Assembly: GCA_023480925.1 (NCBI GenBank) | Contig: JAMCWY010000011.1 | Span: 1 to 9,216, forward strand | DNA from: Patescibacteria group bacterium | GTDB taxonomy: Bacteria > Patescibacteriota > Minisyncoccia > UBA6257 > HR35 | DNA: 9,216 nucleotides | Direction: 5' to 3' | Made by a program: the position numbers and the translations under genes | The notes under the pieces: model-generated | The model's input: only the letters and a program-made list of their open reading frames with translations | Databases searched by the model: none | Told to the model about the DNA's origin: nothing | Shown: positions 7,513-9,102 of the stretch, piece by piece | Layout of the letters: each line of letters opens with the position of its first letter | How positions within the stretch are numbered: the stretch's first letter is position 1

Positions 7513-8988
7513 TTACTTGGCGCAACGAAAGCCTCCAATCATCTGAGACAAACTCGGATACCAAGAAAGGTTTAGGGCGAACACACCATCACCAGCAGGG
7601 CTATAGTTGAAGGCGCCGCCACGGACAAAGAGCTGATCACCGGCGCCGCCGGAGCCGATTGTATGAATTACCCCAACGCCATTATTGGAATTCCAGCTTG
7701 AATTTGGAGGAGCGACATTGGCTTGCGGCACGTCTGTTGTCCAGGCAGTAACATAAGGGGTGGAGGTGTTATTTGGATTTGGAGCGAATTCGCAAGACTC
7801 CCAGCCGGTCCCGGTATTGCAGCTCGGTACGTTCATTGTTGTCTCATTATCACCCGAGTTGTTAACGCTTCGTTGGACATGCTCCTCAACATTGCCGGAA
7901 AAATCCCAGATAACCTGGCCGTTGGATAGAAATAATGTTCGTCTCTGGTTTGCGTTATTGTTTGTGCCATAATAGCCTTGAGAGTCGTCCGGAGAAGCTT
8001 GAAGGATTGTGTTGGCGGTGTTGTTGCCAATATAGAGAGAACCAGAGCCAACTGTTCCGCCAGTCCAATTTGAGGCGACACTGGCAACATTGTCAGCGAT
8101 CGTCATCCACTCATCATTGGTGATAAGATGAGCGCCGATCGTAAGGCAGTAAGATTTGGCCGTGTCATGGGTAATGTAATTGATTGGAGCGCCATTGGGC
8201 GTTGAGGCAATATAATAATTTGGATTGACGCAAGGCTGAGCTGAATTATTGTAACCACCCCAAGAACTAGGCAAAGTTAAGGGCTGGTTATTTGACGCTT
8301 GAACGCACTTGGCTTCATACTTCATCACCTGAAAATTATTGGTTCCAAAAGCGGAATTGCCCGGCACATTAATCCAGGCTCCAAGCGATAAGTACGGGTA
8401 AAAAGTAAGATTTGTTCCGATCTCATAGGCGTTAGCCATTTTGCCGCCATCGGATATAGCGGCGCTGTTTGACGCCTCCATAAAAGCGACAAGCTCCCAT
8501 TGCGGATCGTTAGCGGTCATAAAAACGTAATAATAAGGCGGTTTGTTGATTGGGTCAACAGGCAAGTTGCTTAATGCGACCATCGTGTCGCTGGCAAAAC
8601 TAACTGGAATCCAACCAGTACCGTCAACATTGGTGTAGGTTGACTGAGGCGCGCAGTGATAAGAAAAACCGCCCGAACCGTAAAGGGGCGGCAACTGGCT
8701 GATCCAACTCGAGCAGGTTGGCGATGAATCAGGTAGGGAGATGTACGCAGTCGCGAAACTGCCCATTGCCGTCGCCGGGTTGTCGCCGGCGAAAACATTA
8801 AGAGCTTCGTTGATATTTTTTAAATCTTGAACTCTACGCACGTCTCTGGACTTGGCGAAAATCAGAGCCGGTTTCATGTAAAGTATAATGATAACGGCCA
8901 AGATCGCCAAGATCGCGAAAACAATAAGAATTTCGACCAAGGTGAAACTTTTATTTCTAAACTTAAAAGAGTTTTTTCGGCGATTCAA
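7513..8988 (-). CDS. Type IV pilin-like (class III signal peptide) protein fused to an FGE/SUMF1-like C-terminal domain
   Basis: 491-codon ORF opening with TTG at 8988, since no in-frame ATG precedes the pilin motif. The basic leader NRRKNSFKFRNKS is followed by FTLVEILIVFAILAILAVIIILY, with Glu at +5. The pilin-like globular part contains RDVRRVQDLKNINEALNVFAGDN...GWIPV...LPVDPIN...YYY. The C-terminal domain is described in a sub-feature below. Confidence 0.85.
   Translation of the reverse strand: MNRRKNSFKFRNKSFTLVEILIVFAILAILAVIIILYMKPALIFAKSRDVRRVQDLKNINEALNVFAGDNPATAMGSFATAYISLPDSSPTCSSWISQLPPLYGSGGFSYHCAPQSTYTNVDGTGWIPVSFASDTMVALSNLPVDPINKPPYYYVFMTANDPQWELVAFMEASNSAAISDGGKMANAYEIGTNLTFYPYLSLGAWINVPGNSAFGTNNFQVMKYEAKCVQASNNQPLTLPSSWGGYNNSAQPCVNPNYYIASTPNGAPINYITHDTAKSYCLTIGAHLITNDEWMTIADNVASVASNWTGGTVGSGSLYIGNNTANTILQASPDDSQGYYGTNNNANQRRTLFLSNGQVIWDFSGNVEEHVQRSVNNSGDNETTMNVPSCNTGTGWESCEFAPNPNNTSTPYVTAWTTDVPQANVAPPNSSWNSNNGVGVIHTIGSGGAGDQLFVRGGAFNYSPAGDGVFALNLSWYPSLSQMIGGFRCAK
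7516..8340 (-). other. FGE-sulfatase/SUMF1-like (DUF323, C-type lectin fold) domain
   Basis: Family landmarks appear in order. They are FQVMKYEAK; INYITHDTAKSYCLTIGAHLITNDEWMTIA (the W/A..YC...G.RLPT..EW pattern); GQVIWDFSGNVEEHV (G.YDM.GNV.EW); and the terminal LFVRGGAFN...IGGFRCAK (RGG.....GFRCA). Confidence 0.7.
8878..8988 (-). other. Prepilin-type leader plus N-terminal hydrophobic helix
   Basis: The sequence is KS|FTLVEIL followed by a 20-residue hydrophobic helix. The -1 residue is Ser rather than the usual Gly. Confidence 0.75.
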
Positions 8989-8992
8989 ACTA

Positions 8993-9015
8993 CTCTCTCT
9001 CTCTCTCTCTCTCTC
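8993..9015. repeat. Perfect dinucleotide microsatellite (CT)11C, equal to G(AG)11 on the pilin coding strand
   Basis: Read directly from the sequence. It is 23 nt and uninterrupted, starts 5 nt upstream of the TTG start at 8988, and lies downstream of the promoter at 9074-9102. Confidence 0.97.
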
Positions 9016-9073
9016 GAATTGACATATTTAATACCCATCTTAATTTGAGTTGTTGAAGTTTGTGAATTGTTTG

Positions 9074-9102
9074 ATTATAAGTTGGTTTTAATTTAAAGTC
9101 AA
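9074..9102 (-). promoter_or_regulatory. Consensus sigma70-type promoter for the pilin-like gene
   Basis: On the minus strand, TTGACT (9102-9097), an exactly 17-nt spacer, then TATAAT (9079-9074). The TSS is predicted near 9067. Confidence 0.55.

Follow-up and report, generated by a model that had tools for sequence, protein, structure and literature searches.

The sequence analysed here, called the window throughout, is a complete contig of 9216 bp from an NCBI metagenome-assembled genome (MAG) of an uncultivated Patescibacteria group bacterium (GCA_023480925.1, contig JAMCWY010000011.1). On its minus strand it carries a gene for a pilin-like protein, and just upstream of the TTG start of this gene lies an uninterrupted dinucleotide repeat that may act as a translational switch. 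NCBI annotates the TTG-initiated product of 491 residues as 'prepilin-type N-terminal cleavage/methylation domain-containing protein [Patescibacteria group bacterium]'. The predicted protein has the N-terminus of a type IV pilin or pseudopilin, with a basic leader, a putative cleavage site before Phe, an N-methylation motif and a helix (Table 1). The match to PF07963 lies above the curated cut-off, and the N-terminus of the family profile matches those of solved type IV pilins and pseudopilins, among them PilA, GspG and geopilin. Ahead of FTL[IV]E, position -1 is G, S or A in homologues, and the Ser found here occurs in many family members. Further downstream, residues 228-378 (7855-8307) match the FGE-sulfatase family PF03781 with 24.6 bits against a cut-off of 23.3. 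The DNA encoding the transmembrane helix contains a perfect 9-nt tandem duplication (GCCAAGATC x2.2 on the plus strand, 8897-8916), which is translated as AILAILA.

The repeat upstream of the gene is (GA)11G on the minus strand (8993..9015, 23 nt), or (CT)11.5 in plus-strand notation, and Tandem Repeats Finder (TRF) describes it with a period of 2, 11.5 copies and 100% matches. Apart from a perfect 2.2-copy 9-nt array it is the sole perfect simple repeat that TRF finds in the window, the remaining rows being imperfect low-copy arrays, which bears out the claim of a preliminary description of this DNA that no other long simple repeat is present. Dinucleotide-preserving shuffles give an expectation of 0.01 occurrences for a 15-mer of the tract. 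Within the region scanned for promoters (7300-9216), the top promoter-like site is TTGACT-17-TATAAT (9102..9074, minus strand), from which transcription would start at about 9067, some 7 nt past TATAAT. At 9112-9150 (minus strand) lies a conserved hairpin, CCGCGA-N11-TCGCGG, with a T-rich run behind it; it has no Rfam match. The hairpin sits between the pilin promoter and, in a second assembly of the locus (L001, see below), a divergent rpsM-rpsK-rpsD-rpoA-rplQ operon.

Two ATG codons, ATG-9038 and ATG-9025, stand between the promoter-like site and the tract. At 11 units, the open reading frame (ORF) of ATG-9038 encodes MGIKYVNSRERERERVV and its TGA stop (8987-8985) overlaps the TTG (8988-8986), and the ORF of ATG-9025 encodes MSIRERERERE and ends at TAG 8992-8990. 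As (GA)n contains no stop in any frame and encodes (Arg-Glu)n, the frames can be computed for other lengths: ATG-9038 is in the pilin frame at 10 or 13 units, ATG-9025 at 9, 12 or 15 units. ATG-9025 is the probable ancestral start. Our computations reproduce the promoter and the two upstream ATGs that had been pointed out in the window before, the stops of both upstream ORFs, and the fusion of ATG-9038 by loss, or of ATG-9025 by gain, of one unit. A minor correction concerns the spacing, as the tract, said to end 5 nt before the TTG, is separated from the TTG at 8988 by the four bases TAGT. Initiation at this downstream TTG could bypass the tract, though the frames do switch with length modulo 3.

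Which of these codons resembles a start of this organism? Translation initiation appears to proceed here without Shine-Dalgarno pairing, as a Shine-Dalgarno motif precedes 0 of the ~15 genes surveyed in the window (upstream of 85, 1410, 5536 and 7077) and in L001 (10 gene starts). All of these genes start with ATG after an A/T-rich stretch, except for one doubtful TTG ORF call (820-1425). The contexts of ATG-9038 and ATG-9025 fit this pattern; TTG-8988, which is preceded by GAGAGTAGT, departs from it.

A comparison of orthologues had been set beforehand as a check on the locus. In a collection of 15 billion proteins, the species-level group consists of four sequences only, and all four loci were recovered (window, L167, L001 and L168), with encoded proteins that are 87-100% identical. 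The tract is kept in 4/4 assemblies and occurs in three alleles of different length, with near-identical flanks and with L27, RecA and a large protein with a Lamin Tail Domain (LTD) encoded nearby. Among the three alleles long enough to include them, neither the promoter hexamers nor ATG-9025 differ, and 17 nt separate the -35 and -10 boxes in every allele. The homology of L168 to the window and L001 starts at the -35 hexamer, and the sequence further upstream is unrelated (L168 90-118). In the same allele an AGT/TAG unit between tract and TTG is present fourfold (L168 224-238), giving Ser codons in the pilin frame and stops in another. L001 and L168 share a 1-nt insertion, the frame of ATG-9038 being closed by TAA after 4 codons, and in both it is the frame of ATG-9025 that ends at the TGA overlapping the TTG. 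A scan of JGI metagenomes returned no close allele of the locus (best match 39% identical), and among the 80 best loci by tblastn E-value in a scan of GTDB genomes none came from this species (top 48% identical). Look-ups of contigs by the exact window protein gave no entry.

More distant relatives, at 45-50% protein identity, carry (GA)n, (TC)n or (CAAG)n at the equivalent position, mostly inside the sole available ATG frame (Table 1). In L083 and L170, (TC)10-13 encodes (LS)n. The distance from the tract end to the downstream Phe(+1) codon is 45-65 nt for tracts of 20 nt or more and, irrespective of the repeat unit, 45-47 nt in L083, L165, L166 and the window group; the shorter tract of L094 ends 23 nt before Phe(+1). 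From the equivalent ATG, L094 (protein P0029) encodes MSKRERESKPRGRDS/FTLIE, where the slash marks the predicted cleavage site, and its start MS-x-R-(ER)n-ES (MSKRERES...) follows the pattern of the fused ATG-9025 form of the window gene. A post-tract start codon is absent in L094, as it is in L082, L083, L166 and the proteins P0124, P0125, P0128 and P0130, and because no start codon lies between tract and pilin motif the tract must be coding in all of these. Within clusters of at least 90% identity, lengths vary by whole dipeptides, such as (RE)3 vs (RE)4 or (LS)2, (LS)3 and (LS)4, that is, in in-frame steps of 3 units. In the P0014 cluster, 6/6 full-length members are in frame.

How special is this position? 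We counted dinucleotide repeats of at least 12 nt in 171 sequences (976,614 bases), comprising the window, metagenome and GTDB loci found via the protein, and targeted loci. The count is 22, of which 11 lie 5' of the pilin motif and the other 11, counting L013, in one loop of the reverse transcriptase (RT) gene of diversity-generating retroelements (DGRs); none was found outside these two sites. The contig of L013 ends just past its RT tract.

On these grounds, and with moderate confidence, we favour the interpretation that the tract is a slipped-strand translational frame switch in the leader-coding 5' region of the pilin-like gene. Ribosomes would load at the A/T-rich ATG-9038 and ATG-9025 and then read through (GA)n, with tract length modulo 3 setting the outcome. 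At 12 units, ATG-9025 would be fused to the prepilin frame, giving MSIR(ER)nESSLNRRKNSFKFRNKS/FTLVE, and at 10 or 13 units ATG-9038 would be fused to it; the fused states would correspond to full expression. At the 11 units of the window allele neither ATG would be fused and both upstream ORFs would stop within 5 nt of the TTG, so that only basal initiation or reinitiation at TTG would be left. Prepilin peptidase would, as the family suggests, cut the leader between Ser and Phe, and the same mature protein would therefore result from every in-frame tract length, which may be why a repeat is tolerated at the leader position. A gain or loss of one unit at replication would then toggle expression between high and low or off. 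The tract itself, the reading frames, the differences in length among assemblies, the equivalent repeats of homologues and the lack of Shine-Dalgarno motifs are observed; where transcription begins, which codons initiate translation, how fast the tract switches and how expression responds are inferred.

The tract is an uninterrupted repeat of hypermutable length, as is typical of slipped-strand contingency loci, and its length differs among close strains. The earlier proposal of a contingency locus thus gains comparative support from the allele lengths, from the other repeats at the same site in homologues and from the in-frame polymorphism. That proposal had the tract tuning either the expression level or the form of the leader; the amount of protein fits our interpretation, and the mature product should stay the same, the leader being expected to be cleaved.

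Several observations weigh against a frame switch. An ATG is fused to the pilin frame in 0/4 assemblies of the locus, and a window-type arrangement would be fused in two of three length classes. Initiation at TTG yields a typical 14-residue basic leader (MNRRKN...), and TTG is the start that NCBI annotates. The P0014 cluster is always in frame, unlike the four assemblies of the window locus. Moreover, L082, L083, L165, L166, L169 and L170 were fetched after the repeat was visible in the called protein, a choice that biases the sample to in-frame alleles, and in ~22 unbiased species-representative loci a 5' repeat is present only in L094 and L118, each time a short one (13 nt).

Could the TTG be the sole real start, supplied with ribosomes that have finished an ATG-initiated upstream ORF at the overlapping TGA (TTGA)? 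The alleles observed would then represent the expressed state, and changes in tract length would break or restore the coupling. We consider such a coupled start, the main rival of the frame switch, unlikely, though it agrees with all four alleles. The TGA that overlaps the TTG is the stop codon of an ATG-initiated upstream ORF in 4/4 assemblies. In the window and L167 this ORF begins at ATG-9038, in L001 and L168 at ATG-9025; the latter two differ by -6 nt of GA repeat and +9 nt of TAG units, changes that both keep the frame, and MNRRKN... makes a typical prepilin leader. However, the probability of the TGA pattern arising by chance is ~0.07-0.2, as estimated from frame classes for 2-3 independent alleles, and four alleles are too few for frame statistics to separate coupling from basal initiation at TTG. 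The upstream ORF is moreover not conserved, as different ATGs serve the lineages, and most repeat-bearing homologues are without a post-tract start codon altogether. Coupling also presumes reinitiation at UUG without a Shine-Dalgarno motif, which is not known from such organisms.

It is improbable that the TTG acts independently of everything upstream and that the tract is a neutral relic, an ancestral coding repeat stranded in the 5' untranslated region with no effect. Drift would account for three alleles in two unfused frame classes (probability ~0.3), and, with 3 changes in 14 nt, the surroundings of ATG-9038 evolve as non-coding DNA would. Uninterrupted repeats, however, decay fast unless maintained, and here each assembly retains a perfect dinucleotide repeat of 20-27 nt. 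Such repeats are confined to two specific functional positions in nearly 1 Mb of related DNA, and the context of the TTG is unlike all other starts in the genome.

Triplex DNA can arise at (GA)n.(TC)n mirror repeats. This capacity, together with the location of the tract directly upstream of the TTG, would suit an element graded by length, either a purine tract serving as ribosome-binding site or translation enhancer, or H-DNA acting on transcription. We regard it as very unlikely, since homologues with (TC)n or (CAAG)n on the coding strand conserve no purine-specific role of the RNA, the genome is without Shine-Dalgarno usage, and the spacing from tract end to TTG is independent of tract length. 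The leader RNA (9067..8925) folds no better than shuffled sequence (z = +1.4), which also speaks against such an element and for which reason a riboswitch or attenuator was set aside. Two further candidates can be discarded: a Shine-Dalgarno-like role of the GA tract, because the genes of the window and L001 have no such motif and homologues use TC or CAAG, and a promoter-spacer mechanism, because the tract follows the -10 box and all alleles share one spacer length. An assembly or sequencing artefact, hinted at by the L167 contig beginning 5 nt from the tract, where assemblers struggle, is effectively refuted by the presence of the tract with consistent flanks in four independent NCBI and ENA assemblies.

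The frame switch that we favour gains a further dimension from the relatives of the window protein. Over its full length this protein is 45-50% identical to pilin-like FGE-sulfatase target proteins of DGRs, whose genes are followed immediately by bAvd, by a template repeat (TR) rich in Asn codons and by the RT; these homologues are thus variable proteins of DGRs. A DGR clade restricted to Patescibacteria, with variable proteins of the C-type-lectin/FGE-sulfatase fold, has been described (PMC8144416). Neither in the 9.2-kb window nor in the 13-kb L001 locus did we detect a TR (blastn with the variable-region-like segment) or an RT (tblastn). The blastn and tblastn searches found no DGR cassette within the window, and a cassette elsewhere in the genome is conceivable.

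The window protein ends in ...GGFRCAK, as DGR targets do, and it appears to share with them a C-terminal domain of the FGE-sulfatase fold that ends in a variable region. The candidate segment, 7516-7665, is the longest of several patches of raised divergence between the window and L001; others lie at alignment columns 721-780, where differences are denser, and 961-990. The intergenic DNA just downstream of the gene is ~97% identical between the two. With no TR or RT nearby, the window gene may be a remote or former DGR target.

The second site of dinucleotide repeats, in the DGR RT, came to light in the JGI metagenome scan. A (GA)7-24 tract is present in 11/45 RT-carrying loci, between the conserved motifs GKGTHxAxxRLE and YCLKCDISKYF. 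The frame can be judged in ten of these (L013 is truncated): nine are frameshifted exactly at the tract, and L102 is in frame. Conversely, all RTs that are split in two frames (9 loci) break precisely at the tract, and where the contig spans an RT that has no tract, this RT is intact. In a database search, at least 10 full-length RTs were found to carry (RE)3-6 in frame in the same loop. Within RT clusters of at least 90% identity, in-frame alleles of differing length coexist with halves that end or start in the tract, for instance P0231 and P0265, which are in frame, and the split pairs P0262+P0270 and P0263+P0268. The pair P0262+P0270 corresponds to the adjacent half-ORFs UMX47943.1 and UMX47944.1 of a 1.16-Mb record of Ca. 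Nealsonbacteria DGGOD1a. The RT tract locus is thus a candidate phase-variable DGR mutator.

Taken together, these two sites suggest an arrangement that could as easily hold as fail: in Paceibacteria, a class of Patescibacteria (Wolfe-, Colwell- and Nealsonbacteria and relatives), hypermutable repeats would gate both the DGR-diversified pilin-like protein and the DGR RT. The (GA)n, (TC)n or (CAAG)n tract at the 5' end would toggle the target protein and the (GA)7-24 tract in the RT would toggle the mutator, so that stochastic phase variation would be layered over DGR mutagenesis.

Repeat-driven phase variation is textbook biology of host-adapted pathogens, and the proposed switch combines features of several known systems. 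In Neisseria opa genes, (CTCTT)n in the signal-peptide coding region sets the frame relative to the ATG. As is proposed for the window locus, a simple repeat is placed in the cleaved N-terminal leader of a surface protein, where in-frame lengths leave the mature protein unaffected. The opa repeat is, however, a pentanucleotide in a Sec signal peptide, whereas the window has a dinucleotide in a prepilin leader, two ATGs and a post-tract TTG, and its switch is a predicted one. Neisseria pilC, which encodes a pilus-associated adhesin, has a poly-G tract in its signal-peptide coding region; on/off control of a pilus-linked protein by frameshifts in a leader-coding 5' repeat would be common to both loci, but the pilC repeat is a homopolymer and PilC is neither a pilin-fold nor a DGR-type protein. 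The Haemophilus influenzae genes lic1A, lic2A and lic3A have a 5' (CAAT)n tract and several ATGs in different frames. The window resembles lic1 in having two ATGs in different frames ahead of the repeat, so that 2/3 of the length classes would be expressed, possibly unequally, and the L165 and L166 homologues resemble the lic genes even more directly, with the tetranucleotide (CAAG)n behind several ATGs. The lic genes, with their tetranucleotide repeat, encode lipooligosaccharide-modifying enzymes, in contrast to the dinucleotide and the pilin-like product of the window. Haemophilus influenzae hifA/hifB, finally, carry (TA)n between the -35 and -10 boxes and so likewise combine a dinucleotide repeat with a pilus-type gene; the hif repeat sets the promoter spacer, whereas in the window 59 nt separate the -10 box from the tract that follows it, and the promoter has a constant 17-nt spacer. 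From the loci of DGR variable proteins the 9.2 kb of the window and the 13 kb of L001 differ in being without TR or RT.

The switch mechanism is therefore of a known kind, which in Patescibacteria is apparently not yet described, and its link to DGRs looks new. In a literature search that did not cover Paul et al. 2017, we found no report tying Patescibacteria (Candidate Phyla Radiation) or DGRs to repeat-mediated phase variation. Both the lineage in which it occurs and the link to DGRs raise the interest of the locus. Ultra-small Patescibacteria are thought to live attached to a host through type IV pili. If our interpretation is true, such cells would hedge both whether a pilin-like protein, with homologues that DGRs diversify, is made and what it binds. 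A frameshifting GA tract in the RT would offer a testable answer to the open question of how DGR mutagenesis is restrained. In practice, gene callers and DGR detectors would assign wrong starts to such target genes and split or miss such RT genes.

Table 1. Positions of the features discussed. Coordinates are those of the sequence named in the second column; a slash marks the predicted cleavage site.
Feature	Sequence	Coordinates	Strand	Remarks
Pilin-like ORF, 491 aa, TTG start 8988	window	7513..8988	-	FGE-sulfatase-type domain; C-terminus ...GGFRCAK
Basic prepilin leader, (M/L)NRRKNSFKFRNKS	window	8947..8988	-	ends at predicted cleavage site S/F
N-terminal methylation motif and hydrophobic helix (FTLVEILIVFAILAILAV...)	window	8887..8958	-	Pfam PF07963, E=2.5e-6, residues 11-34
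DGR variable-region-like C-terminal segment	window	7516..7665	-	compared with L001 7218-7425
-35-like hexamer TTGACT	window	9097..9102	-	11/12 match jointly with -10; same in L001 and L168
-10-like hexamer TATAAT	window	9074..9079	-	17-nt spacer from TTGACT
ATG1 (ATG-9038)	window	9036..9038	-	18-codon upstream ORF 8985-9038 at 11 units
ATG2 (ATG-9025)	window	9023..9025	-	MSIRERERERE and stop, 8990-9025, at 11 units
Junction TAG-T-TTGA	window	8985..8992	-	TAG 8990-8992, TTG 8986-8988, TGA 8985-8987
5' tract (GA)11G	window			NCBI MAG contig
5' tract (GA)11G	L167	1-28		GCA_023381135.1; range runs from the contig start, 5 nt ahead of tract
5' tract (GA)13G	L001			GCA_021788915.1; protein 87% identical; syntenic
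5' tract (GA)10G + (TAG)4	L168			ENA ERZ27233565
5' tract (GA)11	L082			in frame with its only ATG
5' tract (GA)14	L169			flanks same as L082
5' tract (TC)10	L083/L084	L083 3045-3064	coding	in frame
5' tract (TC)13	L170	3545-3570		in frame
5' tract (CAAG)6	L165	3527-3553		behind several ATGs
5' tract (CAAG)7	L166	987-1017		behind several ATGs
5' tract (GA)6.5	L094			in frame
RT tract	L013	3681-3701		
RT tract	L024	2245-2262		
RT tract	L082	5713-5744		
RT tract	L083	5724-5749		
RT tract	L088	6573-6617		
RT tract	L093	5358-5389		
RT tract	L095	6762-6800		
RT tract	L102	7987-8034		
RT tract	L107	5238-5255		
RT tract	L111	2320-2355		
RT tract	L118	6609-6622		

The genes around the pilin-like gene are housekeeping in nature, encoding SSB, an LTD protein of 1352 residues, RecA and L27. 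No prepilin peptidase or pilus assembly gene is found within the window, nor are there tRNA or tmRNA genes, and a search against all Rfam families (E<=1) gave no match anywhere in it. Directly 5' of recA, at 5486-5531, lies an A-rich tandem repeat with a unit of 17 nt in 2.7 copies, which is kept in L001.

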